Shown piece by piece: positions 1 through 17,195 of a stretch of 18,238 bases of DNA; position 1 is the first letter of the stretch; each line of letters starts with the position of its first letter. The stretch is from Kofleriaceae bacterium. Lineage in GTDB: Bacteria > Myxococcota_A > Polyangia > Haliangiales > Haliangiaceae. Position numbers and translations under genes: made by a program. Location of the stretch: assembly GCA_046597055.1 (NCBI GenBank), contig JBKJLC010000252.1, positions 1-18,238 on the forward strand, given 5' to 3'. Under the pieces are notes generated by a model. The model was not told the origin of the DNA and did not search any database. It saw only the letters and a program-made list of their open reading frames with translations.

Positions 1-312
1 GCCGTTGAGGTTGCGGTCGTGGACGACCGCGACCGCGTACTCGTCGTGCGGCAGGTCCTTGAACGTCGTCGAGACCTTGCCGTTCTTGATCGCCACCTTG
101 GCGACCCGGAACGCGCCCCCGATCGCCAGCCAGCTCTTGCCCCGCCGGTAGACCCCGACCACCGCCTGGCCCTGGTCGTTATTGAAGTCGACCGCGGTGA
201 CCGACAGCACGCCGGTCGGCTCGGCGTGAACGGGCGCCGGCGACGCGAACGCGATCGCGCCGAGGAGGATCGCGACGCAGGCGGGCAGAAGACGAGAGGT
301 CGGGCGGTTCAT
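1..312 (-). CDS. DUF2141-family secreted protein (5' part; runs off window edge)
   Basis: Absent from the ORF track; translated by hand from ATG at 312 with GGAG RBS upstream: MNRPTSRLLPACVAILLGAIAFASPAPVHAEPTGVLSVTAVDFNNDQGQAVVGVY...FKDLPHDEYAVAVVHDRNLNG. Signal peptide plus the YAVAVxHDxNxNG motif typical of DUF2141. Confidence 0.8.
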   Translation of the reverse strand, partial: MNRPTSRLLPACVAILLGAIAFASPAPVHAEPTGVLSVTAVDFNNDQGQAVVGVYRRGKSWLAIGGAFRVAKVAIKNGKVSTTFKDLPHDEYAVAVVHDRNLNG

Positions 313-334
313 GAGTGGCTCCAGGGTCAAGGGG

Positions 335-1084
335 TCAGTGCTCGCGCAGGAGGCGGCCCGCCCCCCACACCCGGTCGGTCACGCCGGCTTCGCGCAACGC
401 CAGCCACCAGGTCGCCGCGTTGATGGCGATCACCGGCTTGCCGAGCCAGCGCTCGGCCTCGTCGGCGAGCCGGACCATGCTGAGGTTGGTGCCGCACTGG
501 ACGATCGCGTCGACGTCGGGCCCGTCGACCTCGCGCAGCGCGGCCCGCAGGGTGTCCTCGCTGACGTGGGCGATCGCGACCGCGGTCGGACAGCGCAGGC
601 CCTTGATCCGGACGACGTCCACGTCGAGGTCGGCGAAGAAGCGCACGACGTTGCGGTCGCCGACCGGCTGGTAGGGCGTGATCACGGCGATCCGACGCGC
701 GCCGAACAGCCGGAGCGCGCGTTCGCACGCCTCGGCGCCGGTCGCGACCGACATCCCGCCGGCCAGCCCGCGGATCTGCTCGACGAACCGCCGGTTGCCG
801 TCCTTGCCCTCCCAGAACGTCTCGGCGCTCATCCCCATCACCATCGCGTCGGGCTCGCAGGTCATGACCCGCGCCACCGCGTGGCCGATCTCCTCGCGGA
901 TCTGGCGCAGCAGCTGCTCGAACGCGCCGTCCGACGACAGATCCTGGTTGCGGATGTGGATGCGCGAGATGTGCGCGGTCACGCCGGGCACCGCCATCGC
1001 GTGGAAGTCGGGCTCCACGATCGTGTTGGTGCTCGGGATGATCACCGCGAGCTTCTTCCGCCAGCCGAGCGCGTCAGTCGACAC
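335..1084 (-). CDS. Asp/Glu/hydantoin racemase - maleate cis-trans isomerase / arylmalonate decarboxylase family protein
   Basis: Motifs IIPSTNTIVEPD, RIAVITPY, GTNL, LGKPVIAINAATWW and GAGRLL; GTG start with GGAGG RBS overlapping the upstream gene end. Confidence 0.85.
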   Translation of the reverse strand: MSTDALGWRKKLAVIIPSTNTIVEPDFHAMAVPGVTAHISRIHIRNQDLSSDGAFEQLLRQIREEIGHAVARVMTCEPDAMVMGMSAETFWEGKDGNRRFVEQIRGLAGGMSVATGAEACERALRLFGARRIAVITPYQPVGDRNVVRFFADLDVDVVRIKGLRCPTAVAIAHVSEDTLRAALREVDGPDVDAIVQCGTNLSMVRLADEAERWLGKPVIAINAATWWLALREAGVTDRVWGAGRLLREH

Positions 1085-2786
1085 CGGGCACCTCCTCGAA
1101 GAACCCGTCGATCAACCGCCACGGCCGGCCCGCCAGCAGATCGGTGCGGTGGGAGACGACCTTGTTGGCCGCGGCCGCCGGGTGGACCGCGCCGCGCAGG
1201 ACGCCGACCCGGCCGGTCGCGACCGACGGGTGGCTGAGCAGCCCGTCGAAGCGCCGCTCGCGCCACGCCGTCATGATCGTGAAGTCGTCGGGCAGGGTCG
1301 CGATCAGCGCGCGCGGCCCGGGCCCGGCCCCGGCCGCGGCGACCAGGTTCACCCGGTTCTCGGCCGCGCGCTCGACCAGGCCGAGCTCGGCCTCCCACGG
1401 CTCGCACAACGCCGAGGGCACCGCGACCACCGCCGCGCCGGCCAGCGCCGCCAGCCGGAAGACCTCGGGGTAGATCGCGTCGTCGCCGACCACGATCGCC
1501 AGGCGTCCCCAGGGCAGGTCGAGCACGGCGATCGGCGCGGCCATCGCGACCGCGTCGACCACCGCCCACGCGTGGCGGTCGACCGCGTGCAACTGCGGTT
1601 GGCGCAGCACGACGCCGCCGCGATCGATGGCGACCCCGACGTGGTGGAGCCGGTCGCCGCGCGCCTCGACCACGGAGGTCACGACGTGCGCGCCGGGCGC
1701 GCACGCCGCGCTCAGGGCGGCGATCACCGCGGTCGCCTCGGCGCCGACGCCGCCACACAGCTCGGGCAGCACGACCAGCCGCGCGCCGGCCTCGGTGAGC
1801 TCGCGGACCCGCGCCGCGGCTTCGGTGACCGCCGCCGCGCCGCCCGCCTCGATCACGACCGCCGCGACCAGCAGTCGGTCGGCGCTGGCGCCGCCGGACG
1901 CGGTGGCCCCGGCCGGGGTCGACGGATCCGCGGCCAGCGCACGGTACAGCCCGGGCCGCCGCGCGGCGAACACGTCGGTGCCGTCGGGGCGCCGCTTGAC
2001 GCGCGCGCGGGTCGGCTCGACGTCGGCGAACACCACCTCGGGCTCACAGCGACCGGCGCGGACCCGCGCGACCCCGTCGGGCCCGACGATCTGGCTCTCG
2101 CCGGCGCCATGCAGGAACTCGACCGGGATCGCGGTGGCCGCGCTGACCGGCGCCAGCAGCGCGGGCGGGATCAGCGGCCCGACCTTGTTGGCCGCGATCA
2201 CGAACACCCGGTTCTCGGCGGCGCGCACCGGCACGTGCAGCGACGCCTCGTCGAGCGCGAACGAGTTGAGGCTGTTGCACAGCAGCTCGGCGCCGCGGAG
2301 CGCCAGCGCCCGCGGGGTCTCGGCGATCACCCCGTCCATGCACGCGTACAGGCCGAGCCGGCCGATCGCGGTCTCGATCACCGGCGCCGGCGCCGAGGCC
2401 GGCCGCAAGAAGTCGTTCTCGTGCCCGATCAGGACCTGCTTGTCGGACGCGCCGCACAGCGCCCCGTCCGGACCGTACAGGAGCGAGGTCCCCGTGCACG
2501 CCCCACCGTCGCGGCGCACGGTCGCGTTGACCACCACCAGCAGGCGATGCCGCCGCGCGCGGGCGGCGATCGCGCCCAGCCACGGGCCGTCGAGCTCGAC
2601 CGCGACCTGCCAGCAATGCGCCGCGTCGGCGTACCACGACAGGTGGTTGCAGAACTCGGGCAGGACGACCAGCGCGGCCCCGCCCTCGGCGGCACGGTCG
2701 ATGGCCGCGACGCAGGTCGCCAGGTTGACGTCGAGATCGTCGCCGGCCGCGAGCTGGGCCGCCGCCACCCGCACCAGGCCGGTCAC
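1074..2786 (-). CDS. Carbon-nitrogen hydrolase (nitrilase superfamily), two tandem domains
   Basis: Domain 1: VRVAAAQL, LVVLPEF, DKQVL, GLYACMDG (E-K-C triad), RAAENRVFVIAANKVG. Domain 2: LVVLPEL, IYPE, RAAENRV. Start reassigned to GTG 2786 (GTGA overlap with upstream stop). Confidence 0.88.
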   Translation of the reverse strand: MTGLVRVAAAQLAAGDDLDVNLATCVAAIDRAAEGGAALVVLPEFCNHLSWYADAAHCWQVAVELDGPWLGAIAARARRHRLLVVVNATVRRDGGACTGTSLLYGPDGALCGASDKQVLIGHENDFLRPASAPAPVIETAIGRLGLYACMDGVIAETPRALALRGAELLCNSLNSFALDEASLHVPVRAAENRVFVIAANKVGPLIPPALLAPVSAATAIPVEFLHGAGESQIVGPDGVARVRAGRCEPEVVFADVEPTRARVKRRPDGTDVFAARRPGLYRALAADPSTPAGATASGGASADRLLVAAVVIEAGGAAAVTEAAARVRELTEAGARLVVLPELCGGVGAEATAVIAALSAACAPGAHVVTSVVEARGDRLHHVGVAIDRGGVVLRQPQLHAVDRHAWAVVDAVAMAAPIAVLDLPWGRLAIVVGDDAIYPEVFRLAALAGAAVVAVPSALCEPWEAELGLVERAAENRVNLVAAAGAGPGPRALIATLPDDFTIMTAWRERRFDGLLSHPSVATGRVGVLRGAVHPAAAANKVVSHRTDLLAGRPWRLIDGFFEEVPGVD

Positions 2787-3688
2787 GCCGCCACCGCCCG
2801 CGCCTGCCACCACGACCGGGTCCGTCCGCCGACCGGACGGCCGACCAGGTCGCTCGCGACCTCGACCGCGTCCCACAGTCCGGCCAGCTCGATGCCGGTG
2901 TCGAGGCCGAGCTTGTTGGCCAGCATCACCAGATCCTCGGTCGCCAGGTTGCCGGCCGCGCCTGGCGCGAACGGGCAGCCGCCGAGCCCGCCGATCGCCG
3001 CATCGATCGTGCGCACGCCCGCCTGCAGCGCCGCGGCCGCGTTGGCCAGCCCGAGCGCACAGGTGTCGTGCAGGTGGGCGGCCAGCCGGCCGACGCCGAC
3101 CCGCGCGCCCAGCGCCTCGAACAGCCGGCCGACCTCGACCGGGTGGGCCTGGCCGATCGTGTCGGCGATCGCGAGCTGGTCCACGCCGGCGGCCGCGAGA
3201 TCCTCGGCGGCGGCGATCACCCGGTCGGGCTCGACCGCACCCTCGAACGGGCACACCCACGCCGGCGCCAGGTAGACCCGGACGTGGCAGCCGTCGGCGC
3301 GCGCGCGCGCGGCCAGCCGGGCCGCGGTCGCCAGCGACGCCTCGACCGTCATCCGGTTGTTGCGCAGGCACAGCGTCTCGGTGAGCACCGTGACGATCGC
3401 GATCGCGCGCGCGCCGGCGCCGATCGCCCGCTCGTAGCCGGCGTCGTTGATCACCAGCGCCGAGGCCCGGCCCGACTCCCAGGTCCCGGTCGCGGCCATC
3501 ACCGCCGCGGCGTCGGCCAGCTGCGGGATCGCGCGCGGGCTGACGAAGCTGGTCACCTCGAGCTCGCGCAGGCCGGCCCGGCGCAGCGCGCCCAGCAGGC
3601 GGAGCTTGCCGGCGGTCGAGACCGGCGTGGCTTCGCCTTGCAGCCCGTCGCGGAGCCCGACCTCGTGCACGTGGAGCGCGTCGGTCAC
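2783..3688 (-). CDS. Hydroxymethylglutaryl-CoA lyase family (DRE-TIM metallolyase)
   Basis: EVGLRDGLQ, IADTIG, HLHDT, GGLGGCPFAPGAAGNLATED; GTG start at 3688 in GTGA overlap. Confidence 0.9.
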   Translation of the reverse strand: MTDALHVHEVGLRDGLQGEATPVSTAGKLRLLGALRRAGLRELEVTSFVSPRAIPQLADAAAVMAATGTWESGRASALVINDAGYERAIGAGARAIAIVTVLTETLCLRNNRMTVEASLATAARLAARARADGCHVRVYLAPAWVCPFEGAVEPDRVIAAAEDLAAAGVDQLAIADTIGQAHPVEVGRLFEALGARVGVGRLAAHLHDTCALGLANAAAALQAGVRTIDAAIGGLGGCPFAPGAAGNLATEDLVMLANKLGLDTGIELAGLWDAVEVASDLVGRPVGGRTRSWWQARAVAA

Positions 3689-4884
3689 GCGATCACCCCC
3701 TGCGCCCGCAGCGCGGCCAGCGCCGGGCCGTCGAGGCCGGCCAGCCGGCCGAGGACCTCGTCGGTGTGCTGGCCGAGCGTCGGTGGCGCGGTGTAGCGGT
3801 CGTCGCCGCTGTCCGACAGCTTGATCGGGTTGCCCGGCATGCGCACGGTCCCGCCGTGACCGTCGGGGACGTCGACCACCATCGCCCGCGCGAGCACCTG
3901 CGGATCGTGGAGCGTCGCGGCCAGGTCGTTGACCGGCGCGCACGGGATGCGGGCGGCCCGCAGGCGCTCGAGCCAGTACGCCGACGGCTGCAGCTTCAAC
4001 CGCTCGGCCAGCGTGTGATCGATCAGGTGCCGGTTGCGCCACCGCCCGGGCTGGCCCCGGTGCGCCTCGGTGTCGAGCGCCGGCAGCTCGAGGAGCTGGA
4101 CCAGCTGGGTCCAGAACCCGTCGAAGATGACGGCGATGATGATCCAGCCGTCCCGGGTCGGGTAGGTCCCGTACGGCACGTGCACGAAGTGGCCGTTGCC
4201 GAGCGGGCCCGGCACCTCGCCCGACAGGAAGTACATCGTCGCCATGTAGTTGAGCAGGCTCACCTGCGCGTCCTGCATCGAGATGTCGACGTGCTGGCCG
4301 CGGCCGGTGGTCGCGCGCGCCTGCAGCGCTGCCAGCACGCCGATCACGCCCATCACCGAGCCGCCGAGATCGCCGATCGGGATCCCCGACCGGGTCGGGG
4401 CGCCGCCCTCGGCGCCGGTGATGCTGAGGCCGCCGCCGGCACCCTGCGCGACCAGGTCGAAGCTGACCAGGTCCTTGTTCGGCCCGGTCTCGCCGAAGCC
4501 GGTGATGCTGCAGGTGACGATGCGCGGGTTGATCGCGGCCAGGCTGGCGTGGTCGATGTGCAGCCGGCCGGCGACCCCGGCCGCGAAGTTGTAGATGACG
4601 ACATCGCTGGCCGCGACCAGCCGGCCGAACACCTCACGACCCTCCGCCTGCTTGAGGTCGAGGGTGACGCTCTGCTTGTTGCGGTTGAGGGTGAGAAAGT
4701 ACGCCCCCAGCCCGTGCCGGCTGTAGCGCGGGTCCGACGCCAGCAGCCGGCGGGTCCCCTCGCCCTCACCGGGCGGCTCGACCTTGATCGTCTCCGCGCC
4801 CAGGTCGGCCATCATCATCGCGGCGAACGGGCCGCTCAACATGTGGGTCAGATCGAGAACACGCAGGCCGTCGAGCGCTCTCAC
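3685..4884 (-). CDS. Family III (CaiB/BaiF) CoA-transferase
   Basis: ALDGLRVLDLTHMLSGP, LGAETIKVEPP, NRNKQSVTLDLK, SITGFGETGP, TGRGQHVDISM, PPTLGQHT; GTG start at 4884 in GTGA overlap. Confidence 0.92.
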   Translation of the reverse strand: MRALDGLRVLDLTHMLSGPFAAMMMADLGAETIKVEPPGEGEGTRRLLASDPRYSRHGLGAYFLTLNRNKQSVTLDLKQAEGREVFGRLVAASDVVIYNFAAGVAGRLHIDHASLAAINPRIVTCSITGFGETGPNKDLVSFDLVAQGAGGGLSITGAEGGAPTRSGIPIGDLGGSVMGVIGVLAALQARATTGRGQHVDISMQDAQVSLLNYMATMYFLSGEVPGPLGNGHFVHVPYGTYPTRDGWIIIAVIFDGFWTQLVQLLELPALDTEAHRGQPGRWRNRHLIDHTLAERLKLQPSAYWLERLRAARIPCAPVNDLAATLHDPQVLARAMVVDVPDGHGGTVRMPGNPIKLSDSGDDRYTAPPTLGQHTDEVLGRLAGLDGPALAALRAQGVIA

Positions 4885-5504
4885 AGGTGCTCCATGACCG
4901 CTGCCAGCGGCAGCACGTCGCCGTACTTGGCGTCGATGTCGAAGAGGTTGGCGTCGTGCGGGGCGGCGGCGCGGTCGGCGACGCACTCGCGGGGAACGAT
5001 CACGCGGAAGCCGTGCTGGAGCCCGTCGACCGCGGTCGCGCGCACGCAGCCCGAGGTCGAGCAACCGACGACGATCACGGTGTCGACCGCGGCCGCGACC
5101 AGCAAGGACGCCAGCGGCGTCGCGAAGAACGCGCTGGCGTAGGCCTTGACCAGCACGACCTCGTCGGCGCCCGGCGCCAGCTCGGGGACGATCGCGGCCA
5201 GCGGCGAGCCGGCGGTGAACGCCGCCAGCGCCGGCACCTTGCGCAGGAACACGCCGGCCTCGGCCGCCGACCGCGAGTACTCGACCCGGGTGAACACCAC
5301 CGGCAGCCGGCGCGCGCGGGCCCGGTCGAGCAGCGGCCGGGTCGCGCGCACGGCGTCGACCACCGCGGGCGCGAACAGCGGCGCGCCCGGCTCGGTGTAG
5401 GCGCGGACGAAGTCGACCACGATCAGCGCCGGCCGCTGGCCGAAGCCGACCCGATCGCCGAACACGCCGCGGTAGCTCGCGGCCAGCGCGTCGTCGCCGA
5501 TCAC
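4881..5504 (-). CDS. Isochorismatase-family cysteine amidohydrolase (maleamate amidohydrolase NicF / N-carbamoylsarcosine amidase-like)
   Basis: GFGQRPALIVVDF, KAYASAFF, GCSTSGCVRATAVD, HDANLFDIDAKYGDV (D-K-C triad); GTG start at 5504 in GTGA overlap. Confidence 0.88.
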   Translation of the reverse strand: MIGDDALAASYRGVFGDRVGFGQRPALIVVDFVRAYTEPGAPLFAPAVVDAVRATRPLLDRARARRLPVVFTRVEYSRSAAEAGVFLRKVPALAAFTAGSPLAAIVPELAPGADEVVLVKAYASAFFATPLASLLVAAAVDTVIVVGCSTSGCVRATAVDGLQHGFRVIVPRECVADRAAAPHDANLFDIDAKYGDVLPLAAVMEHL

Positions 5505-6040
5505 GAGCCCTCCTCGCGCGCGGCGCCCGCCTGGCGCGTGCGCGTGTAGGCGACGATGCCGCCGGCGCGCAGGATGTCGAGCGAGATGCCGCCCAGGTTC
5601 CGGATCAGATAGACCAGCCCGGTGCGCGGGTTGCTCACCGCGCGGGCGTCGAGATCGACGGTGAGGACGTCGCCGGTCTCGATGCCCTCGATGGTGTCGA
5701 CCACGATCGGCGGCAGCCCGATGTTGACGCAGTTGCGCAGGAACACCCGGCCGAAGCTGGGCGCGATCAGCGCCGCGACCCCGGCCTTGAGCAGCGCGTA
5801 CGGCGCCGACTCGCGGCCCGAGCCGCTGCCCAGCTCGGGCCCGCCGACCACCAGATCGCCGGGCGCCACCTGCGCCGCGAAGTCGGGCGCGATGCCGGCC
5901 AGCGCGTAGCGGCCGACCTCGTCGGACCCGTGATCGAGGTAGCGGCCGGGCAGGATGTCGTCGGTGGTCAGGGTGCCGGGGAACACCCAGGCCGCGCCCC
6001 GCAGGCGCTCCAGCGAGCGATGGCCCGCGCCCGCGCTCAC
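5501..6040 (-). CDS. Aconitase-family small (swivel) subunit, LeuD/DmdB/HacB-like
   Basis: TTDDILPGRYL, GSGSGRESA, IAPSFGRVFLRNCVNIGLP, ILRAGGIV. Confidence 0.88.
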   Translation of the reverse strand: MSAGAGHRSLERLRGAAWVFPGTLTTDDILPGRYLDHGSDEVGRYALAGIAPDFAAQVAPGDLVVGGPELGSGSGRESAPYALLKAGVAALIAPSFGRVFLRNCVNIGLPPIVVDTIEGIETGDVLTVDLDARAVSNPRTGLVYLIRNLGGISLDILRAGGIVAYTRTRQAGAAREEGS

Positions 6041-7245
6041 GCCGCCACCTCGGCCGCGACGTCACGCGGATCGGTGATCGCCCCACGAAGCGCCGAGGCC
6101 GCGACCGTGTAGGCCGAGGCCAGCACGACGCGCGCGTCGCGGCTGCCCATCCGCCCGGGGAAGTTGCGGGTCGCGGTGGCGATCACCCGATCGCCCTCGC
6201 CCTGCACGCCGGCGTGCACGCCCGCGCACGCGCCGCACGCGGGCGGCATGATCGTGCAGCCGGCCGCGACCAGCGTCGCCAGCGTGCCATCGGCCAGCGC
6301 GCGCGCGTGCACGCCGCGGGTCGACGGCGTCACCAGCGTCGGCACCCGCACCGTGCGCCCGGCCAGCACCCGCGCTGCCGCGCGCAGATCTGCGTCGCGG
6401 CCACCGACGCAGCTGCCGATCCACGCCATGTCGACCGGCTCCCCGGCCAGCGCGCGGGCCGGGGTCACCGCGGCCGGCGATGGGTGCGCCGCACACAGCG
6501 GCTCGAGCCCGGCCACGTCGAGCTCGAGGCGCCGGGCCCAGCTGCGCTCGGCGCGATCCGCGCCGACGTCGACCACCGCGTGGGTCGCGCCCAGCTCGGC
6601 GCCCTGGTTGGCCAGCACCAACCGGGTGTCGAGGTCGGCGCCCACGACGAAGTCGCCGCCGTACTCGATCGCGCGCCCGAACGCCAGCCGGGTGCCGTGC
6701 TCCCCGAGCAGCCGCATCGTCACGTCGCGCGCGTCGCACCACGGCGGCAGCGCGCCGGTCAGGTCGATCCGGATCGTCTCGGGCACGGTGAGCCACACCT
6801 GCCCGGTCGCCATCACCGTCGCCAGCTCGGTCGAACCGACCGCCAGCGCGACCGCGCCGACCGCGCCCGCGGTGGTGGTATGCGAGTCGGCGCCGACCAC
6901 CAGCATGCCGGGCGCGACCAGGCCGCGCTCGAGGACGAGCGCGTGCAGGATGCCCTCGTACTCGTGGAAGGCGCCGATCTGCTGCTCGCCGGCCCAGCGT
7001 CGGGTCGCCTTGAGGATCGCGGCGTGGCGCAGGTTGCCGGCCGGCACGAAGTGGTCCGACACGACCACGACCCGCGCGCGATCCCACAGCCCGCCCAGCT
7101 CGTCGACCAGCCCGGCCAGCCGGCGCGGTCCCGACGAGTCGTTCATGATCATGCGATCGGCCTCGGCCCACACCTCGTCGCCGGGCCGGACCCGGTGCCC
7201 GGCGGCGCGGGCGATGATCGTCTCGGTCAGCGGCGCGGCGATCAC
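6037..7245 (-). CDS. Aconitase-family large subunit, LeuC/DmdA/HacA-like [4Fe-4S] hydratase/isomerase
   Basis: DHFVP, GADSHTTTAGA, IGSC and CGAC (three Cys ligands), RNFPGRMG; GTG start at 7245 in GTGA overlap. Confidence 0.9.
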   Translation of the reverse strand: MIAAPLTETIIARAAGHRVRPGDEVWAEADRMIMNDSSGPRRLAGLVDELGGLWDRARVVVVSDHFVPAGNLRHAAILKATRRWAGEQQIGAFHEYEGILHALVLERGLVAPGMLVVGADSHTTTAGAVGAVALAVGSTELATVMATGQVWLTVPETIRIDLTGALPPWCDARDVTMRLLGEHGTRLAFGRAIEYGGDFVVGADLDTRLVLANQGAELGATHAVVDVGADRAERSWARRLELDVAGLEPLCAAHPSPAAVTPARALAGEPVDMAWIGSCVGGRDADLRAAARVLAGRTVRVPTLVTPSTRGVHARALADGTLATLVAAGCTIMPPACGACAGVHAGVQGEGDRVIATATRNFPGRMGSRDARVVLASAYTVAASALRGAITDPRDVAAEVAA

Positions 7246-8729
7246 GAGGTCCTCGCGGCGCCGTACGGGCGGCGCAGGTAGCGACCGCGTGGCTCGCCGA
7301 CCACCTGGCCGGCCTGGTAGACCAGCTCGCCGCGCAGGTAGGTCGCCTCGACCCGGCCGCGCAGCGCGAGCCCGGCGAACGGCGAGTAGCCCTGCGCCGA
7401 CGGCGACCGCTCGGCGTCGACCACGACCGCGGCGTCGGGATCGACCAGCACCAGGTCGGCGTCGCAGCCGATCGCGAGGTCGCCCTTGGCCAGCAGGCCG
7501 AACCGGCGGGCCGGGTTGCGGCACAGCAGCTCCGCGATCCGCCCGAGCGACAGCCCGCGCCGGGTCCCCTCGGTGAGCAGGCCGGGCAGCAGCCACTCGG
7601 TGCCGCCGAACCCGCTGCGCGCGCGCCAGACGTCATCCGGGTTGTCGCGGTCGAGCTTGTGCTCGGCCGCGCAGCACGCGTGATCGCTGACCACCCAGTC
7701 GATGTCGCCGGCGAGCACCGCCTGCCACAGCCGCTCGACGTCCTCGCGCGGGCGGATCGGCGGGTTGACCTTGGCCAGCAGCCCGGCCGGGCTGTCGACG
7801 TCGAGCAGCAGGTGGCCGATCGTCACCTCGCGGGCGAAGTCGACGTGCGGGAACACCGCGCGCATGGTCAGCGCGGCGTCGATCGCCTTGCGCGACGACA
7901 GATGCAGCAAGTTGATCTTCGCGCACCGGGTCTCGTCCGCCAGGTAGGCGGCGATGAAGATCGCGAGCCCCTCGGAGTGCGGCGGGCGCGACGCGCTGTA
8001 CGCGCGCAGCCCGGTCAGGCCCGGATCGCGCTCGACCAGCCGGGTGTAGGCGGTCAGGATCTCGCCCAGCTCGCAGTGCAGGCTGACGCTGACCGCGTCG
8101 CCCGCTCCCGGCACCTCGGCCGCGATGCGCGCCGCCTCGCGCATCACCATCTCGAAGTGGGCCAGGTCGTAGCTGTGATCGTCCTCGATCTTGAGGAAGT
8201 CGCGCTGTGACCCCGACCGGCCGTGCAGGCCGTGGTTGCCGTAGAACATGAAGATCTTGAACGACGGCACGCCGTGGTCGCGGACCAGGGCCTCCATCTC
8301 GCCGATGTGCGAGCGCTGGATCGGCGCCAGGTGGTAGCCGTAGTCGACGTGGAACGCGCCGGCCGAGCGGGCCAGCACCTCCGGGAACACGTCGGCGTAG
8401 GCGCCGCCGGTGTCGAGGTAGTACTGGCCGGTCCGGAAGTAGCTGAGCAGCGTGGTCACGCCGCCCATCGCCGCGGCCCGCGACTCGGACCGGGCGTCGT
8501 CGGCCAGCGGCCGGTAGATGCCGACGTGGGTGTGGGCGTCGACCAGGCCCGGGAACGCCAGCCAGCCGTGGCCGTCGACCACCTCGCGCGCGTCCGAGGC
8601 CGGGATGCCGGGCGCCAGCGCGGCGACCACGCCGCCGGCGACCGCGACGTCGACGTCGTCGGGCGCGGCCCGGCCCGGCCGCACCACCCGCACGTTCTTG
8701 AACAGGCGGTCGTACATCACCGGCGTCAT
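7242..8729 (-). CDS. Cyclic amidohydrolase (dihydroorotase/allantoinase/hydantoinase/imidase family), binuclear metal
   Basis: PGLVDAHTH, SFKIFMFY (carboxylated Lys position), HCE, LHLSS, KVNPPIR, VVSDHAC, KGDLAIGCDADLVLVD; ATG at 8729 in ATGA overlap. Confidence 0.9.
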   Translation of the reverse strand: MTPVMYDRLFKNVRVVRPGRAAPDDVDVAVAGGVVAALAPGIPASDAREVVDGHGWLAFPGLVDAHTHVGIYRPLADDARSESRAAAMGGVTTLLSYFRTGQYYLDTGGAYADVFPEVLARSAGAFHVDYGYHLAPIQRSHIGEMEALVRDHGVPSFKIFMFYGNHGLHGRSGSQRDFLKIEDDHSYDLAHFEMVMREAARIAAEVPGAGDAVSVSLHCELGEILTAYTRLVERDPGLTGLRAYSASRPPHSEGLAIFIAAYLADETRCAKINLLHLSSRKAIDAALTMRAVFPHVDFAREVTIGHLLLDVDSPAGLLAKVNPPIRPREDVERLWQAVLAGDIDWVVSDHACCAAEHKLDRDNPDDVWRARSGFGGTEWLLPGLLTEGTRRGLSLGRIAELLCRNPARRFGLLAKGDLAIGCDADLVLVDPDAAVVVDAERSPSAQGYSPFAGLALRGRVEATYLRGELVYQAGQVVGEPRGRYLRRPYGAARTS

Positions 8730-9589
8730 CCTTCGACCACGTAGCGGCGCTCGAGCTCGGCGAGCTCGTCGAGCCGGGTCAGGCGGTTGAGCGCGGCGAA
8801 GTCGATCATCCGGTCGAGCTCGCCGGCGGTGGTGCCGTCGCGGCGCAGCACGCCCAGCACCTCGGCCGCCGCGTGCGCGAACCGCCGGATCAGCGTGTTG
8901 GGGTAAAGCACCAGCGCGTAGCCGAGCGCGGCCAGCTCGTCCGCGGGCACCAGCTCGGTCTTGCCGCCCTCGACCATGTTGGCAACCAGCCGCTGGCCGG
9001 GCAGCGCGGCCGCGATCGCGGCCAGCTCGGCGCGGTCGCGCGGCGCCTCGACGAACAGTAGATCCGCGCCGGCCTCGGCGTAGGCGCGGGCGCGGCCGAT
9101 GGCGGCGTCGAGCCCGAGCTCGGCGCGGGCGTCGGTGCGGGCGATGATCAAGAAGTCGCGCGACCGGCGCGCGGCCCGGGCGGCGTGCACGCGACCGACC
9201 ATCGCGGCCTCCGACACCAGCCGCTTGCCGTCGAGGTGACCGCACCGCTTGGGTGAGGCCTGGTCCTCCAGCTGGATCGCGGCCGCGCCGGCGTCCTCGA
9301 ATAGCCGGACCGTCCGCATCAGGTTCATCGCGTTGCCGTGGCCGTTGTCGCCATCGGCGATCAGCGGGATCGAGATCGCGCGCGCCGCCGACCCGACCCG
9401 CTCGGCCATCTCGGTCACGCTGACCAGGCCGACGTCGGGCTGGGCCAGCTGCGAGTAGGACACCCCGGCCCCGGACAGGTAGACCGCGTCGAACCCGGCG
9501 GTCTCGATCAGGCGCGCGGTCAGCGCGTCGTAGGCGCCGGGCGCGATCAGCGCCGCCCCGCGGTCGAGCCGTGCGCGCAGGCCGGTCAT
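8726..9589 (-). CDS. Isocitrate lyase/PEP mutase superfamily C-C lyase (2-methylisocitrate / 2,3-dimethylmalate lyase-like)
   Basis: PGAYDALTARL, YLSGAG, IADGDNGHG, EDQASPKRCGH, IIARTDA, NMVEGGKT; ATG at 9589 in TGATG overlap. Confidence 0.9.
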   Translation of the reverse strand: MTGLRARLDRGAALIAPGAYDALTARLIETAGFDAVYLSGAGVSYSQLAQPDVGLVSVTEMAERVGSAARAISIPLIADGDNGHGNAMNLMRTVRLFEDAGAAAIQLEDQASPKRCGHLDGKRLVSEAAMVGRVHAARAARRSRDFLIIARTDARAELGLDAAIGRARAYAEAGADLLFVEAPRDRAELAAIAAALPGQRLVANMVEGGKTELVPADELAALGYALVLYPNTLIRRFAHAAAEVLGVLRRDGTTAGELDRMIDFAALNRLTRLDELAELERRYVVEG

Positions 9590-10047
9590 CACGGCCCCCG
9601 GTACAGCGCGAAGGTGAGGTCGTCGAGGTTCACCGCGGCGCCGCCGACCGTCCTGGCCCCGCCGGTCTCGGCGATGTAGTCGACGTTGGGGACCGGCTGG
9701 AAGTTGCCGCCGGCGACGTCGTAGAGCACGACGTAGACGTAGTACTCGCCGGCCGGCATCACGTCGGCGGCGTGGAGCGTGTATGGCGTACCCGGCGTGA
9801 TCGGGGGCTGCTCGACGATCGCGGCCACGCCGATCGGGGGCCCCGGCGGGGGCAGTCGCTCGTACAGCCCGGCGATGATCTTCTTGGGTGTCCCCACGTA
9901 GTCGGCGGGCAGGTGCAGGGTGACGCAGATCGACGCCGGATCGGTGCAGTCGCCGGGCCGCGGCTCGGGGCCGGTGCCGGTGTCGGCGTCGGTGCACCCC
10001 ACGCACGCGGCCAGCACGATTACGACCAGCAAGCGAATCGAGATCAT
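9589..10047 (-). CDS. Hypothetical lipoprotein, probably beta-rich
   Basis: Hydrophobic signal with lipobox LAAC; GAGGAG RBS; start and stop both overlap neighbouring genes. Confidence 0.75.
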   Translation of the reverse strand: MISIRLLVVIVLAACVGCTDADTGTGPEPRPGDCTDPASICVTLHLPADYVGTPKKIIAGLYERLPPPGPPIGVAAIVEQPPITPGTPYTLHAADVMPAGEYYVYVVLYDVAGGNFQPVPNVDYIAETGGARTVGGAAVNLDDLTFALYRGP

Positions 10048-12566
10048 CGGCGTTTCTCCTCGTCAGGCGATGGGTGGTCGGCGAGCACGTAGAGCTGCAA
10101 TGGGCGGAAGATCGTGGGCTGGGCCAGCGCCGCGCCCGAGGTCACCGCGGCCAGCCGCGGCGCCGCGCCGGGCGCGCCGCCGGGCCACTCGAACAGCTGC
10201 GAGACCTGCACCGCGTTGGTGCCGAACGCGTGGCCGGTGACCATCTGCCAGCCGGCGCCATCGCGGGTGCGGAACACGTAGCCGCTCTTCTGGCGCAGCT
10301 CCGACGCCAGCTGCACGAACGCGACGTCGTGGACCCACAGATAGCCGCCGGCCACCGCCAGCCGGCCGGCGAGCTGGCTCGGGTCGCCCCAGCCCGGGCC
10401 GAGCCGCGCGCCGGCACCAACCTCGCGGTTCCAGGTGACGCCGTCGCGGCTGGAGAACAGCTCGCTGCCCTCGAAGTGCAGGGTCGCCAGCCACAGCCGG
10501 TCCCCGAAGTCGATCATCGACGACACCTGGTGGTTGCCGCTGCCCATGCCGGCCTCGTCGAGGCCGACCTCGTCGGCGTCGACCGCGTCGTCGATGCGCG
10601 CGATGAGCGTCCCGGCCGCGTCGAGCGTGAACAGACGCGCGCCATGATCCTCGGTACCGGTGCCGCCGAGGTAGAGCAGCGGCCGGCCCGACACCGACGA
10701 CGGGTACAGCGCCGAGATCGAGGTGGTGATCGGCACGCCGTCCGGGTGGCGGCCGAAGCTCGCGCGCGCGACCGCGACGTCGAACCGAACGCCGTCGGTC
10801 GACACCCGCAGCTCGGCGCCGTCCTCGTAGTCGAGGGCGGTGCCGACGTAGAGGCGGTCGTCGTACACCGCCATCGCCGCGAGACCCTTGCTCCACGGAT
10901 GGCCGAACCCGCTCTCGTCGTCGCCCTGGCGCAGGTAGACCACGTCGCCGGGCCCGAGCCGATCGCACACGGTCGACTCGACGGTGTGGGCGAGGTCGTT
11001 GGCCTGCACGGTCAGGCTGTCGGCGCTGTTGTCGAGCACCTCCCACACGATCGGATCGGCGCCGGGCTCCGCGGTGGGGCTGCCGACGTCGTCGAGCACC
11101 GCGCCGCGCAGGGCGCCCGGCGTCCAGCCGGCGTCGGCCACCCGCACGATCGCGCTCGGATCGCCGTCGTTGGCCGCGCAACCGGTGACGCCGCTCACCG
11201 TCGCCGGCGGATCCTCGTCGACCTGGCGCGAGACCACCGGCCGCCAGCGCGCGCCGTTCCACGCCCAGACCTCGGCGCCGGTCGACGCCAGCTCGCCACC
11301 CTGAGCGCCCGACGACACGCCGACGTAGAGCTCGTCACGGAACACGACCATCGCGCCCAGCAGGCCGTCGAGCCGCGGGTTGCCGTGGAAGGCGGCCGGG
11401 CCCCCAGCGGCATCGGGGCTCACCACCGGCGTGAACGTGCCGGCCGGGTCGAGCCGCAGGACCCGGGCGCCGGTGACCGCGTCGCGCACGAGCAGGTACC
11501 GATCGCCGCGCCACGCTGCGCTGGCCACCACGTCGGCGGTGGTCGGGGTCTCGGTCAGCGCCGAGCCACCCAGCCGTTGCCGGATCACCCGCGGCAGCCC
11601 GGGATCGAGCAGCGTCAGCCGGGCCAGCCGGGTATCGGCGGTCACCGCCGGGTCGTCCGCCGCTCCCAGGTCATCCGCGATCGCCGCGTCTCCGGCGAGG
11701 TAGCGGGCCGCGAACGCGACCAGGTATCTCGCCGCGGTCGCCCGCGCCGCGCGGTTGCCGATGGTCGGGTCGCTGTCGTCGTCGAGCCGCAGGTCCGCGC
11801 GCACGTCGACGTAGTCGGTGAGCTGGTAGTGGTTGCCGCCCTCGATCTGGATCGCGTGCAGCGGGCGGTCCTCGATCCGATCGACCGTGATCGCGACCTT
11901 GTCCGGCGTGGCCAGCCCGTCGCGCGAGCCCGACATCAGCAACCAGGGAACCTCGGCGGCGGCCATCGGCGCGCGGTCGGTGTCGCGGGCCTGGTTGTGA
12001 TAGCCGAGCAGGATCAAGCCACGTAGCGCGGCCGGCGTGGTGTCGGTCGGGGCGCAGATGCCCGGCGGGCACGCGGCGACGTCGACCAGCCCGACCTGCG
12101 CGACCCCGCCGGCCGAGTGGCCCGCCAGCACCACCCGCGACAGATCGAGGTGCGCGCGCACGTCCGCCAGCCCGGGATCGGCGGCCAGCGCGTCGAGCGT
12201 GCCGAGCGTGTGTTCGCTGGCGCCGAACGCGCCGTGGGGCTGCACGACGAAGGTCGCGATGCCGTGGCTGGCCAGGGTCGCGCCCATCCAGCGGTACCGC
12301 TCCTTCACCACCAGCGCGCCCGGGAGCATGACGACCACCGGCGCGGCCGCGACGTCCGGCAGGTAACCGTCGACCGCAATCGTGCGACCGCCGCGGGTCC
12401 AGCTCAGCGCCGCCTCTCTATAGAGGACGTCGCCGAGCGGCAGATACGACAGGTCGGGATCGGGCGCGGTGTCGTACCAGGGCCCGTCGGCGCTGCACGC
12501 GATCAGCCCGCCCAGCGCGAGGGCCAGCGCCGCGAGTCCGGTCGGTCGTGGGCGACGAGAGGACAT
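10044..12566 (-). CDS. Lipoprotein: N-terminal alpha/beta serine hydrolase fused to C-terminal Asp-box beta-propeller
   Basis: ATG 12566 gives MSSRRPRPTGLAALALALGGLIAC (lipobox). GHSAGG nucleophile elbow, GSRDGL (Asp), GGNHYQ (His). Repeated blades such as MVVFRDELYVG, MAVYDDRLYVG, MIDFGDRLWLA with STDGVRF/SRDGVTW/TRDGAGW. Confidence 0.8.
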   Translation of the reverse strand: MSSRRPRPTGLAALALALGGLIACSADGPWYDTAPDPDLSYLPLGDVLYREAALSWTRGGRTIAVDGYLPDVAAAPVVVMLPGALVVKERYRWMGATLASHGIATFVVQPHGAFGASEHTLGTLDALAADPGLADVRAHLDLSRVVLAGHSAGGVAQVGLVDVAACPPGICAPTDTTPAALRGLILLGYHNQARDTDRAPMAAAEVPWLLMSGSRDGLATPDKVAITVDRIEDRPLHAIQIEGGNHYQLTDYVDVRADLRLDDDSDPTIGNRAARATAARYLVAFAARYLAGDAAIADDLGAADDPAVTADTRLARLTLLDPGLPRVIRQRLGGSALTETPTTADVVASAAWRGDRYLLVRDAVTGARVLRLDPAGTFTPVVSPDAAGGPAAFHGNPRLDGLLGAMVVFRDELYVGVSSGAQGGELASTGAEVWAWNGARWRPVVSRQVDEDPPATVSGVTGCAANDGDPSAIVRVADAGWTPGALRGAVLDDVGSPTAEPGADPIVWEVLDNSADSLTVQANDLAHTVESTVCDRLGPGDVVYLRQGDDESGFGHPWSKGLAAMAVYDDRLYVGTALDYEDGAELRVSTDGVRFDVAVARASFGRHPDGVPITTSISALYPSSVSGRPLLYLGGTGTEDHGARLFTLDAAGTLIARIDDAVDADEVGLDEAGMGSGNHQVSSMIDFGDRLWLATLHFEGSELFSSRDGVTWNREVGAGARLGPGWGDPSQLAGRLAVAGGYLWVHDVAFVQLASELRQKSGYVFRTRDGAGWQMVTGHAFGTNAVQVSQLFEWPGGAPGAAPRLAAVTSGAALAQPTIFRPLQLYVLADHPSPDEEKRR

Positions 12567-12568
12567 GC

Positions 12569-12608
12569 TTGACCGAAATGTCGTAACATTATAACTAATG
12601 AGCGTCAA
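12569..12608. promoter_or_regulatory. Divergent promoter region with candidate GntR operator
   Basis: AT-rich island with facing -35-like hexamers TTGACC (+, 12569-74) and TTGACG (-, 12608-03) around overlapping palindromes AATGT-CGTA-ACATT (12577-90) and CATTA-TAAC-TAATG (12587-600). Confidence 0.6.
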
Positions 12609-12727
12609 GACTCGCCTCCCCAAACGTCCACCCGTAATCCCGTGTATTTGGACGACTTCTTCAGCAAGTGAGAAGTACGACTTCTCGCTCCTAACACGGC
12701 TCACTGTCTCGAAGGAAGCAGAACCAC

Positions 12728-13225
12728 ATGTCGCCCTCCTACATCCGGTACCGCCTCGTGACCCTCGCCGCGCTGTTCGCCTGCGCCACCTGTGGCCAGA
12801 GCGACGATCAAGCGCCGCCCGCCGCTGACGCCGCCAGCGCCGACGCCGTCAGCGCCGACGCGACGATCGATGCGTCGACTGCGACCGACGCGGCCGCCGC
12901 ATCCCCGACCCAGATCAACTGCGGCACGGCCAGCCCGTGCGAGCGCTCCAGTCAGGTGTGCTGCTTCACCGGCCCGCCGACGATCACCACCCGGTGCACC
13001 GCCACCGCGCAGTGCACCGATCTCCCCGGCCGCTGCGACGGCCCCGAGGACTGCGCCGCCGGCGAGATCTGCTGCGGCACCCAGGAGGGCGCCGACTGCC
13101 GTGCCGCGAGCGCGTGCACCGGCGTCACCGCGGCCCAGCTCTGTCACACGGCGCAGGACTGCGCGTCCGGCCAGATCTGCCGCACGTCGCAGTTCGTCGC
13201 CTGGCCGATCTGTGCCCGCAGCTGA
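12728..13225 (+). CDS. Cysteine-rich lipoprotein, hypothetical
   Basis: GAAGGA upstream; signal peptide ending LFAC; Asp/Ala-rich linker, then a Cys-rich domain (CDGPEDC...GEICC). Confidence 0.75.
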   Translation: MSPSYIRYRLVTLAALFACATCGQSDDQAPPAADAASADAVSADATIDASTATDAAAASPTQINCGTASPCERSSQVCCFTGPPTITTRCTATAQCTDLPGRCDGPEDCAAGEICCGTQEGADCRAASACTGVTAAQLCHTAQDCASGQICRTSQFVAWPICARS

Positions 13226-13248
13226 CGCCGCGTACCATGCACGGATTC

Positions 13249-14004
13249 ATGGCGGCTTCGATCGCGCGCGGCTCGCCGCTCCCGCTCTATCACCAGCTCA
13301 AGCAGCTGCTCCTCGATCAGATCGAGCGCGGCGCCTGGAAGGCCGGCGACCTCATCCCCGGCGAGCAGGAGCTGCAGGACGAGCACGGCCTGTCTCGGAC
13401 CACCGTCCGCCAGGCCCTGCGCGAGCTCGAGGTCGAGGGTCGGATCAGCCGCCACCGCGGGCGCGGCACGTTCGTGTCCCCGCCGAAGCTGACCCACTCC
13501 GTCGAGCCGCGGGTCAGCTTGTCCGCGTCGCTGCGGGCGCGCGGCATGGAGCCGGGCTGGCAGGTGCTGACCGTCGCGCACGTCGCGCCGCCGGGCGACG
13601 TCGGCGATCGGCTCGAGATCCCGCGCGGCAGCAAGGTGCTGCGGGTCCGGCGCCTGCGGCTGGCCGAGCGCGAACCCATCGGCCTGCACGTCGCCCACAT
13701 CGCGCCCGCCTTCGAACGCCTGGTCGATCGCGACGCGCTGACCACCGGCGGCTCGCTCGACTACCTCCGCCCTGACCCCGCGCTCGACCGCAACCACGCC
13801 GAGCGCGTCCTCGAGGCGATCGGTTGCCCACGCGCCGAGGCGGAGCTACTCGATCTCGTCGAGGGCGCGCCCATGCTACGCATCCGCCGCCTGATCATCA
13901 CCGCCGGCGGCAAGCCGATCGAGGACCTGTCCGCGATCTACCGCGGCGACCGCTTCCAGTACCACCTGTCCAGCTCGTCGGCTCGCGACAGCGGCGCGCC
14001 CTGA
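13249..14004 (+). CDS. GntR-family transcriptional regulator, HutC subfamily (wHTH + UTRA)
   Basis: PLYHQLK, IPGEQEL, SRTTVRQAL, RGRGTFV; UTRA-type RLRLAEREPI and YRGDRFQY. Alternative start at 13237. Confidence 0.93.
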   Translation: MAASIARGSPLPLYHQLKQLLLDQIERGAWKAGDLIPGEQELQDEHGLSRTTVRQALRELEVEGRISRHRGRGTFVSPPKLTHSVEPRVSLSASLRARGMEPGWQVLTVAHVAPPGDVGDRLEIPRGSKVLRVRRLRLAEREPIGLHVAHIAPAFERLVDRDALTTGGSLDYLRPDPALDRNHAERVLEAIGCPRAEAELLDLVEGAPMLRIRRLIITAGGKPIEDLSAIYRGDRFQYHLSSSSARDSGAP

Positions 14005-14097
14005 GTCACCGCAGTGACCGTCCTCCTCCTCCTGAAGGGTTGCCAGACGACGAGTGAACCTCCTCGGCGGCGCCACCGCCGCAGCGACTGACCTGGA

Positions 14098-15243: not shown

Positions 15244-15836
15244 CGGGTCCCATGCTACGCCGATCGCGCAGCACCAGCCTCTCTCCCACGCGCGGGCCTC
15301 TGTGCCCGAGCGCGCGTGCAACCGTGGCCGATCGGCGTTGTCCCTCGCCCGCCGCGCCGTCGCCGCTGGTCAAGGCGGGTCGTCGTCGATCGCGTCGGCG
15401 CCGGCGGCGAGCGCGAGGCCGACTGCAGCGGCGAAGACGAACACGATGGCGCCGACGACGACCGCGACCTTGGCGACGCCCCCGAGCTCGCCGTCGTCGA
15501 CGCAGGCGGCCGCCGGTGGTCGCTCGTCGTCACCGCACGCGCTCCTGGAACGGGTCGCGCCGAGCAGGACTCGAGGCATCCCATGTACGCGGTGTGGCGC
15601 GACAGACCGGAGCGGGAGGGGAACTCGTCCATCGATAGCATCCGCTCGACGACCTCGGCGTTCCCGGTGCGGTCGTGCATCATGGTGCCGGTCATAGGAA
15701 GGATGGCGTACCGATCGTGCTGGAGGACCCAGCCGCCACAGGGGCGGCGACGCCATCGTTGTGGATCTCGGACGAGAATCAGCGATCTGGCGAGCCGGTC
15801 GTTGGCGACCTCCGCGCCCGCGCTACGCTCCCCACG

Positions 15837-16079
15837 ATGTCCGGCTATGAGCGTGCTCCGCTGGTGGAGGCCCTCTGCGAATTCCAGTTCGCGAGCGCGC
15901 CGGACAGCGCGTGGGACTGGACGCTGCCCGGACAGTTCTACGAGCGCGTCAAGGACCGCTTCCCAGGTCGAGCCGAGGCGCGCCGCCTTGATCTCGCCGT
16001 CGGTCCGACCTTGGCGGCGCGCACCCACGATCGAATCCAGTTTCGCCGACCCGAGGGTGACGGTGCGCGTGCAAGTCGA
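15837..16079 (+). pseudogene. TIGR04255-family protein, 5' fragment interrupted by IS21-like sequence
   Basis: MSGYERAPLVEALCEFQF...WDWTLPGQFYERVKDRFP resembles the TIGR04255 N-terminus (recognised from memory). Similarity appears to shift frame (VQV) and stop near 16079. Confidence 0.65.
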
Positions 16080-17157: not shown

Positions 17158-17195
17158 GGCGCGCTCACTCTCGTTCACATATTGGAGATACAAAC

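Follow-up and report, generated by a model that had tools for sequence, protein, structure and literature searches.

A gene cluster of a Kofleriaceae bacterium that may encode the lower half of aerobic tetrapyrrole catabolism through alkyl-maleimides

The DNA analyzed here is contig C19 of the Kofleriaceae bacterium assembly GCA_046597055.1 (JBKJLC010000252.1), whose entire length of 18,238 bp we refer to as the window, and our subject is a tightly packed run of catabolic genes on its minus strand. The source genome comprises 8.4 Mb in 303 contigs, has a GC content of 72%, and is 94% complete. We give slightly better than even weight to the reading that the window genes represent the lower half of an aerobic route of tetrapyrrole catabolism via alkyl-maleimides, maleates, and malates. 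A tetrapyrrole origin of the substrate, by either type of ring (imide or pyrrolinone/hydroxylactam), appears fairly probable, and the pigments would probably be chlorophyll catabolites and, again probably, bilins. The cluster would likely allow the last steps in the digestion of chlorophyll- or bilin-type pigments, in which the small leftover nitrogen rings are opened and split into ordinary acids. Below, we describe the gene content, the junction with a second contig (C77), the protein families and their intact catalytic residues, the operator, and the co-occurrence of the genes in other genomes, and from these we infer every reaction of the pathway.

As shown in Table 1, 11 minus-strand genes lie between positions 12566 and 335 and are read from 12566 downwards. 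In sense order, they encode an α/β-hydrolase fusion of 840 amino acids (aa), a lipoprotein-like protein (152 aa), an ICL/PEP-mutase-family lyase (287 aa), a cyclic amidohydrolase (495 aa), LeuC-like (402 aa) and LeuD-like (179 aa) proteins, an isochorismatase-family, NicF-like amidase (207 aa), a CoA-transferase (CaiB, 399 aa), an HMG-CoA-lyase-like enzyme (HMGL, 301 aa), a tandem nitrilase (570 aa), and a protein of the arylmalonate-decarboxylase/maleate-isomerase fold (249 aa), hereafter the decarboxylase-fold protein. An earlier note on this DNA had named eight enzyme families in one operon and proposed a route for cyclic imides or substituted maleamates; Pfam and NCBIfam models placed all eight on the minus strand within 335–12566, to which the operon adds the lipoprotein-like open reading frame (ORF) and the hydrolase fusion. 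The tight coupling described there is also borne out because all 10 junctions among the 11 same-strand genes overlap, eight of them by a 4-bp stop/start overlap and the other two by 1 and 11 bp, respectively. GC at third codon positions (GC3) is 0.93–0.98 across all 11 reading frames.

The lower half would begin with the cyclic amidohydrolase. Its metal-site residues H66, H68, K158, H218, H276, and D349 are invariant in 19 of 19 sequences and provide the four histidines, carbamylated lysine, and aspartate of the binuclear site that marks the cyclic amidohydrolase superfamily. Its best NCBIfam and PDB matches are allantoinases, its closest solved relatives are allantoinases and hydantoinases, and many of its relatives (at least 6942 at E ≤ 1e-100) are named "allantoinase" in JGI. 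These labels would suit an ordinary allantoinase lying among unrelated catabolic genes, an explanation that we consider highly improbable. The protein scored 228.2 bits against a cut-off of 357.85 for allantoinase AllB (TIGR03178), 188.1 against 393.25 for dihydropyrimidinase (TIGR02033), and 177.5 against 279.05 for dihydroorotase (TIGR00857); no uricase, allantoate, or ureidoglycolate gene family was present among the recurrent neighbors scanned; and purine catabolism offers no role for LeuCD and a malate-type lyase, to which the gene is coupled in a conserved manner. A strict allantoinase or dihydroorotase, which the earlier note had set against its own proposal, was dropped because the scores lie under every allantoinase, hydantoinase, and dihydroorotase cut-off returned. 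On sequence grounds, the protein is a member of an uncharacterized family and likely opens an imide or lactam ring. Imidases are listed inside the cyclic amidohydrolase family (PMC9863593), and titles among the references of that article report hydrolysis of cyclic imides by members of the family.

Hydration and carbon–carbon cleavage would follow. The LeuD-like protein passes the LeuD/DmdB model (Table 1), and the LeuC-like protein scored 378 against 385 for NF001614, with three cluster cysteines present in its sequence; other LeuC-like genes of the same genome are on contigs C261 and C279, making the operon copy extra to the housekeeping LeuC. The best PDB match of the ICL-family lyase is the petal death protein (1zlp, E 1.4e-59), with which its ICL-family catalytic Cys loop aligns; PrpB is a close second, the protein falls under the PrpB NCBIfam cut-off, and fungal 2,3-dimethylmalate lyase (3fa3) matched at E 1e-45. 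Petal death protein cleaves 2-alkylmalates, including a preference for 2-ethyl-3-methylmalate, which is the hydration product expected from methyl-ethyl-maleate. The window enzyme is likely a 2,3-dialkylmalate lyase. A second cleavage route could be provided by HMGL, likely an (R)-citramalyl-CoA-type lyase, together with CaiB, which passed no NCBIfam equivalog and is 63–68% identical to the CaiB proteins found beside NicF/HMGL in clusters that encode RCCR-fold proteins (see below).

We next consider how widely these genes travel together. A scan of GTDB for the amidohydrolase returned at least 580 relatives (∼2100 stretches estimated), of which the best 80, at 59–67% identity and from many phyla, were analyzed with 10-kb flanks, many of the loci being incomplete. 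Among these best 80, LeuC-like and LeuD-like genes were each found in 38 loci, the ICL-family lyase in 34, CaiB in 21, GntR in 18, and HMGL in 15, so that co-occurrence of the lower core is far above chance. NicF and the nitrilase were each found in two, and the decarboxylase-fold gene, the hydrolase fusion, and the lipoprotein in none; NicF, the nitrilase, and the decarboxylase-fold gene are found alongside the RCCR-fold half (13, 9, and 13, respectively, of 38 long loci). Thus, the co-occurrence that the earlier note proposed to check holds for the amidohydrolase-LeuCD-lyase core but not for these three genes, and its linear order of amidohydrolase followed by NicF is not supported by the counts. 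The amidohydrolase-LeuCD core recurs across phyla and ends in either the ICL-family lyase or CoA-transferase plus an HMGL-like enzyme; as expected of alternative end steps, the lyase and HMGL never occur together among the best 80 loci, and both are present in the window and in the nearest relative, genome G028. In proteobacteria, the module also includes an ABC transporter of the branched-chain type and an FAD_binding_2 dehydrogenase but no half-amidase gene. The cyanobacterial loci adjoin a 2-oxoglutarate hydroxylase, DUF4437, and DUF3598.

Several variants of these loci were seen. An Asp/Arg-β-hydroxylase-family gene lies beside the amidohydrolase in 10 cyanobacterial loci (L018, L025, L034, L035, L060, L062, L068, L074, L078, and L080), some of which also have an ICL lyase, nitrilase, aldehyde dehydrogenase, DUF3598, or DUF4437 gene; these are possibly an internal pigment-recycling version. 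The G028 locus (L084) keeps GntR, lyase, amidohydrolase, CaiB, HMGL, and DUF3598 in that order, LeuC being a 64-aa remnant (L084:16979–17170) and LeuD missing from the locus. Other clusters (L020:11470–12606 and L164:7259–8023) have an extra thiamine-dependent decarboxylase pair or an HpaI-type aldolase.

The remaining enzymes of the operon bear on whether it could serve nicotinate or pyridine breakdown, either by the aerobic maleamate pathway (NicF and NicE) or by the anaerobic nicotinate route (DmdAB and Dml). The NicF-like amidase (best PDB matches 26st, 4l07, and 3ot4) has an aligned and intact Asp-Lys-Cys triad, which leaves its substrate unfixed, and its context is that of RCCR-fold clusters and not of a pyridine-ring pathway. 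In the N-terminal domain of the tandem nitrilase, all 10 sequences compared share E44, K116, and C149, and the second domain has no equivalent invariant Lys/Cys; the protein thus likely combines an active N-terminal with an inactive C-terminal domain. In the decarboxylase-fold protein, the first of the two positions of the catalytic cysteines of maleate isomerase NicE/MaiA is Gly or Met and never Cys, and 4 of 10 homologues have Val/Ala in place of Cys197, while S86, E88, Q196, T199, and N200 are invariant. Maleate isomerase was therefore rejected, with no conserved Cys at either position, and so was arylmalonate decarboxylase (NF052327, 59.2 against a cut-off of 225; proton-donor Cys variable); a decarboxylase or tautomerase is likely. 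Of the maleate-isomerase-fold protein of the earlier note, the fold (PF17645) stands and an isomerase role does not; the families fit the imide/maleate/malate chemistry of the note, and its linear amidohydrolase-NicF order is not supported. The intact NicF triad, the DmdB-family LeuD, the kinship of the lyase with dimethylmalate lyase, and an FAD monooxygenase on C77 are what a nicotinate pathway would offer in its favor, but with a NicE-like gene devoid of both cysteines, and with molybdenum hydroxylase, 2,5-dihydroxypyridine dioxygenase, and B12 mutase families all missing from the cluster genes scanned, such a pathway is hardly credible here.

The operon exits the window at position 1, where a DUF2141 gene starts 4 bp past the last operon gene. 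The final 117 bases in the operon sense are identical to the end of C77, the overlap is unique, and none of the other contig ends of the assembly overlaps the window end by 5 bases or more; further, the DUF2141 frame stays open through the junction to its stop codon. One study, which may be the one that the assembly came from, has three soil-metagenome runs, and single contigs bridge the junction in all three, the bridging records of 1368, 3374, and 3208 bases being present on both sides at equal depth. The same three runs carry ∼15 substitutions and one missing base at window positions 181–331, from strain variation or an assembly difference. C77 adds 21 more same-strand genes, bringing the cluster to ∼33 genes over ∼33 kb, and the gene overlaps suggest that these are co-transcribed. 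The C77 genes encode a lipoprotein, a Rieske oxygenase, RCCR-fold protein 2 (RCCR2), an acyl-CoA-dehydrogenase-fold protein, an unknown protein, two aldehyde dehydrogenases, an FAD monooxygenase, two α/β hydrolases, a second CaiB, a truncated-globin lipoprotein, RCCR-fold protein 1 (RCCR1), a single barrel, DUF3891, three double barrels, an SDR, an FG-GAP lipoprotein, and an MFS transporter.

Flavin monooxygenases are among the best solved relatives of the acyl-CoA-dehydrogenase-fold protein; the C77 part has one Rieske oxygenase and two flavin monooxygenases. The earlier remark that no pyridine-ring oxygenase or hydroxylase is present consequently applies to the window but not to the whole operon, which has three oxygenases on C77. 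The Rieske protein has Rieske and VanA_C domains and is nearest to SxtT/NdmA-type enzymes; because PF08417 was not matched at E ≤ 0.05, it was dropped as a PAO orthologue, and it may still work like PAO. The family of the two C77 α/β hydrolases (L086:16338–17129 and the L086/L087 junction gene, G000:C77:68723–69613) may not be a plain esterase, since at least 9 of 10 aligned members carry His in place of Ser at the nucleophile elbow. The truncated-globin lipoprotein (L086:17135–17587) scores above the PF01152 cut-off and is a possible pigment binder.

The tetrapyrrole reading is carried mainly by the RCCR-fold and barrel proteins. RCCR1 passes PF06405 (38.6 against 24.9 bits) and matched nothing in the PDB other than Arabidopsis RCCR. 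RCCR2 falls below the PF06405 cut-off, but its predicted model (pLDDT 89) has RCCR as best Foldseek match (TM 0.74–0.77) and matches HY2, RCCR, PebA, PebB, and PcyA with Z of 21.7–23.1, the next unrelated fold having 5.4; it is 16–18% identical to its RCCR matches. The two proteins are homologous (98.5%); kinship with plant RCCR is drawn from the Pfam profile, the PDB matches, and the fold. Of the two catalytic acid sites of plant RCCR, RCCR1 has Ala at the first and keeps the distal Asp, and RCCR2 has an invariant D95 at the first, so that the paralogues appear from their sequences to split the two acids between them. The Polyangiales metagenome-assembled genome (MAG) G357 (L173, L175, L177, and L178) has nine RCCR1-like matches, three of them strong. 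The enzymes of the FDBR/RCCR fold described in PMC10151467 and PMC13446030 act on tetrapyrroles. The double barrel model resembles DUF3598/BFA1 (Z 18), nitrobindins (Z 12.5), and the bilin lyase CpeS (10.7), and DUF3598 and CpeS are also among the Atlas neighbors of the barrel proteins; as judged from the models, this likeness is one of shared fold and indicates no function.

Pigment-related genes recur around this half. Pfam chlorophyllase is above cut-off beside the lyase in two of five mapped Halieaceae clusters, the cluster region of genome G247 has a CpcT bilin lyase, and a cyanobacterial RCCR-family protein is 51% identical to the RCCR1 of L004. The window hydrolase fusion scores above the PF12740 cut-off and reaches chlorophyllase PF07224 only at E 0.12 (11.6 bits against 26); it shares 21–25% identity with an esterase that is a conserved part of RCCR-fold clusters, all 10 aligned sequences keeping Ser, Asp, and His, and is by sequence a divergent member of this cluster esterase family (PETase/chlorophyllase clan). 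The family is distantly related to a chlorophyllase-family protein (96%), but chlorophyllase membership was not accepted, the family reaching at most 20.9 bits against 26. Methyl-ethyl-maleimide, methyl-vinyl-maleimide, and hematinic acid are documented as chlorophyll and heme breakdown products in PMC7318184 and PMC12860425. Overall, the tetrapyrrole oxidation products that the earlier note offered as one speculative source gain real support as candidates from the RCCR-fold, Rieske, and bilin-lyase-like neighbors.

A metagenome search with RCCR2 provided 80 fetched loci, of which the 38 of at least 10 kb were counted, many being related Chloroflexota-type loci. In these, the Rieske and double barrel genes were each present in 34, HMGL in 29, CaiB in 23, the amidohydrolase and GntR each in 19, LeuC in 18, and LeuD in 17. 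One locus (L118) has NicF, CaiB, HMGL, nitrilase, and decarboxylase-fold genes in the same order as the window. Consistent with linkage of the halves, among the 251 genomes of the class of the Chloroflexota MAG G354, 10 have the amidohydrolase and nine have RCCR2, all nine within the 10; the two genes lie within 10 kb in six of the nine (the Fisher value for the overlap, 2.7e-14, is overstated because kin are not independent). The link was seen in Chloroflexota, Myxococcota, one Halieaceae genome, and the source genome. In a FastTree of the amidohydrolase (86 rows after removal of most of the near-identical metagenome sequences), 18 upper-half-linked members are scattered among stand-alone ones with eight label changes, at least four of them forced by well-supported branches, and therefore one family with one substrate class is suggested. 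Around the source genome, both genes are rare, the amidohydrolase occurring in 2 of 61 genomes of close relatives and RCCR2 in 2 of 301 genomes of the phylum.

Several observations weigh against a tetrapyrrole pathway in two linked halves. An upper-half gene is present in only 11 of 79 GTDB amidohydrolase loci; among 151 Halieaceae genomes, RCCR2 is found in 24 and the amidohydrolase in one (a low-stringency recheck found no orthologue in five of five genomes); among 121 Xanthobacteraceae genomes, the amidohydrolase is found in three and RCCR2 in none; and PF06405 is present in zero of five proteobacterial and one of five cyanobacterial amidohydrolase carriers. G247 has the upper half without the amidohydrolase, and G028 has the amidohydrolase without the double barrel. 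In addition, the Rieske protein has no PaO domain, RCCR1 has Ala at the first catalytic acid, the presumed maleate isomerase has neither cysteine, NicF rarely accompanies the amidohydrolase, lower-only operons contain no half-amidase gene, one FDBR-fold match is a chloroplast motor complex subunit (8xks), meaning that the fold is not solely enzymatic, and Stay-Green dechelatase was not found in the 94%-complete genome, the control sequence being likewise unmatched. Lower-only genomes may be scavengers of free pigment fragments, and upper-only genomes may stop early or employ another hydrolase. The G675 Halieaceae cluster (L184:11275–13881) has an isochorismatase and two PuuE-like hydrolases and no metal amidohydrolase; replacement of the amidohydrolase by a PuuE-type hydrolase in Halieaceae is therefore a mere lead, as it was seen in G675 only and in none of the other fetched loci.

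Such gaps could mean that another nitrogen heterocycle (a pyrrole natural product, hydantoin, or succinimide) is degraded, with the RCCR-fold and barrel proteins repurposed. The upper half is indeed missing from most amidohydrolase carriers, the Rieske protein is not a PAO orthologue, and the pigment links are all by fold or family, with RCCR2 at low identity to its matches. However, one cluster type unites several independent tetrapyrrole-associated folds (RCCR twice, CpeS/nitrobindin-like barrels, globin, CpcT, and chlorophyllase), and the 51% identity of the cyanobacterial protein to RCCR1 points the same way; we regard the alternative as fairly unlikely. A different possibility keeps the tetrapyrrole origin but makes the ring a pyrrolinone/hydroxylactam of the BOX/propentdyopent type, from which an enamidase-like amidohydrolase would free ammonia in one step and a dehydrogenase would make maleate. 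The lower-only operons, consisting of GntR, ABC transporter, LeuCD, amidohydrolase, FAD_binding_2 dehydrogenase, and lyase, would suit it, as would the separation of NicF and nitrilase from the amidohydrolase, and BOX and propentdyopent lactams are documented chlorophyll products in PMC7318184. Against it, the solved allantoinases and hydantoinases cut imide/ureide rings, cyclic-imide hydrolysis is reported for family members in the titles noted above, and the source genome has no FAD dehydrogenase of this type (best match 27%). We consider this lactam route quite unlikely.

In the imide pathway that we favor, the upper half would start with an esterase that strips ester groups from the pigment and a Rieske oxygenase that opens either a methine bridge or the macrocycle. 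With the pigment held by the barrel proteins, bridge reduction would fall to the two RCCR-fold proteins; the release of single pyrroles and their oxidation to pyrrolinones and maleimides would be the work of flavin monooxygenases and aldehyde dehydrogenases, and the decarboxylase-fold protein, which lacks the cysteines, could take off a carboxyl. In the lower half, the amidohydrolase would act on imides of the methyl-ethyl, methyl-vinyl, or hematinic-acid type and open the ring, an amidase (nitrilase-family or NicF-like) would liberate ammonia, and LeuCD would hydrate the dialkylmaleate to 2,3-dialkylmalate. The ICL-family lyase, or CoA-transferase with the HMGL-like lyase, would cleave this to pyruvate (or another 2-oxo acid) and a short acid/acyl-CoA, two lyase routes in one genome handling rings with different side chains. 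The FAD dehydrogenase of many lower modules, whose gene is not in the source genome, could desaturate succinimide from a reduced chlorin ring. A more far-reaching version, to which we give somewhat less than even credence, is complete bacterial chlorophyll mineralization, in which ester cleavage, oxygenolytic opening, and RCCR-type reduction would lead to maleimides, ammonia, pyruvate, and short acids, the maleimide half having spread alone to soil proteobacteria and deinococci, which would scavenge pigment fragments, and to cyanobacteria, which would recycle their own.

The plant PAO/phyllobilin pathway (chlorophyllase, PAO, and RCCR; PF06405; PDB 2zxk and 3aga) resembles the cluster in placing a Rieske oxygenase beside RCCR-fold reductases and a chlorophyllase-clan esterase; the system here differs in being bacterial, in its two RCCR paralogues, in its Rieske protein, and in that no Stay-Green was found. 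The plant route, as outlined in PMC9306834 and PMC7318184, ends at linear tetrapyrroles. The cluster, unlike it, has ring-opening, hydratase, and lyase genes for steps beyond these. Eubacterium barkeri DmdAB and Dml and the Pseudomonas maleate hydratase HbzIJ provide precedents for LeuCD-type alkylmaleate hydration followed by ICL-family cleavage, consistent with the DmdB model match of LeuD; the cluster, however, would be fed by a cyclic amidohydrolase and not by nicotinate fermentation or gentisate cleavage, and it has a second, CoA-dependent cleavage route. The cyclic-imide pathway of Blastobacter sp. A17p-4, an imidase plus a half-amidase, likewise opens an imide and hydrolyzes the amide to a dicarboxylate, but the hydratase and lyase of the cluster imply branched substrates, and its gene set and regulated 33-gene setting are different. 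The (R)-citramalate route consists of succinyl-CoA:(R)-citramalate CoA-transferase and (R)-citramalyl-CoA lyase (EC 2.8.3.20 and 4.1.3.46; PMC8307300). It shares with the cluster a CoA-transferase/lyase pair acting on an (R)-2-alkylmalate made by LeuCD-type enzymes, the cluster substrate probably having a further 3-substituent and the likeness being one at the level of family. We presume here that the enzymes of that route belong to the CaiB and HMGL families. The maleamate pathway of aerobic nicotinate degradation shares the NicF-like amidase and a maleate-isomerase-fold gene, but the NicE-like protein of the cluster lacks catalytic cysteines, and no pyridine-specific upstream enzymes were identified.

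The module is real, conserved, and apparently undescribed: no description of the cluster or of bacterial maleimide/chlorophyll catabolic genes was found in the openly licensed PMC and bioRxiv literature, and subscription papers might bear on its novelty. In the available text of PMC9306834, PMC10151467, PMC2716323, and PMC13446030, bacterial RCCR-like sequences are treated only as an outgroup or cyanobacterial oddity. Chlorophyll turnover is on the scale of 10^12 kg yearly, its fate beyond plant phyllobilins being largely open according to PMC7318184, and formation of the maleimides used as sediment biomarkers is described as incompletely understood in PMC12860425. Because the cluster points to specific enzymes, to candidate substrates that are simple, and to a regulator whose operator is defined, maleimide consumption becomes directly testable. 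If the proposal is true, bacterial RCCR relatives, DUF3598-like barrels, DUF3891, and an amidohydrolase family of several thousand sequences now labeled allantoinase or dihydroorotase would each gain a first function.

A 14-bp palindrome with 5-bp arms lies 11 bp ahead of the first start codon of the operon and is the sole copy in the genome. Of 24 distinct homologous loci, 15 have its core close to the GntR gene, mostly 11–28 bp before the GntR start, compared with a mean of 2.4 and a maximum of seven loci in 300 shuffles. The palindrome is thus likely the GntR operator, and, because its core recurs near GntR genes, the GntR-UTRA protein of the window is the likely operon repressor. Given the position of the operator before the first gene, the two odd lipoprotein genes are therefore likely co-regulated with the operon. 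Relatives of the regulator (41–52% identity) lie beside the cluster in the 19 GntR-bearing long RCCR-fold loci, and, in G028, directly upstream of the lyase. A scan of positions 12400–14300 for σ70 promoters and terminators found none.

Table 1. Coordinates of features in the 18,238-bp window
Feature	Position	Strand	Evidence
DUF2141 gene, cut by contig end, in frame into C77	1..330	-	PF09912 above cut-off
Arylmalonate-decarboxylase/maleate-isomerase fold protein	335..1084	-	PF17645
Tandem nitrilase-family amidase	1074..2786	-	PF00795 twice
HMG-CoA-lyase-family enzyme	2783..3688	-	NF004283, 279.6 bits vs cut-off 246
Family III CoA-transferase CaiB	3685..4884	-	PF02515
NicF/N-carbamoylsarcosine-amidase-like cysteine amidase	4881..5504	-	PF00857
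LeuD/DmdB-type hydratase small subunit	5501..6040	-	TIGR02087, 143.5 bits vs 108.95
LeuC/DmdA-type [4Fe-4S] hydratase large subunit	6037..7245	-	PF00330
Binuclear cyclic amidohydrolase	7242..8729	-	Metal-site residues
ICL/PEP-mutase-family C-C lyase	8726..9589	-	PF13714
152-aa predicted lipoprotein, no family	9589..10047	-	No Pfam/NCBIfam match
Predicted lipoprotein, α/β hydrolase plus large C-terminal domain without family	10044..12566	-	PF12740 above cut-off
14-bp palindrome, likely GntR operator	12577..12590	none	5-bp arms
Cys-rich predicted secreted protein, operon membership uncertain	12728..13225	+	No family
GntR/HutC-type regulator with UTRA domain	13237..14004	+	PF00392 and PF07702

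Among the other genes of the window, the 152-aa lipoprotein ORF has no relative among the fetched homologous loci, and the Cys-rich protein, which matches no Pfam or NCBIfam family, has none in the 80 amidohydrolase loci. Beyond the regulator, an ankyrin-repeat protein (14098–15321, minus strand) is apparently unrelated to the cluster. It is followed by a 331-aa ORF (16079–17074) with no Pfam match, which resembles a transposase remnant, and after this ORF, the GC content falls to 56% (17001–18000) and an AHSA1 gene is present.

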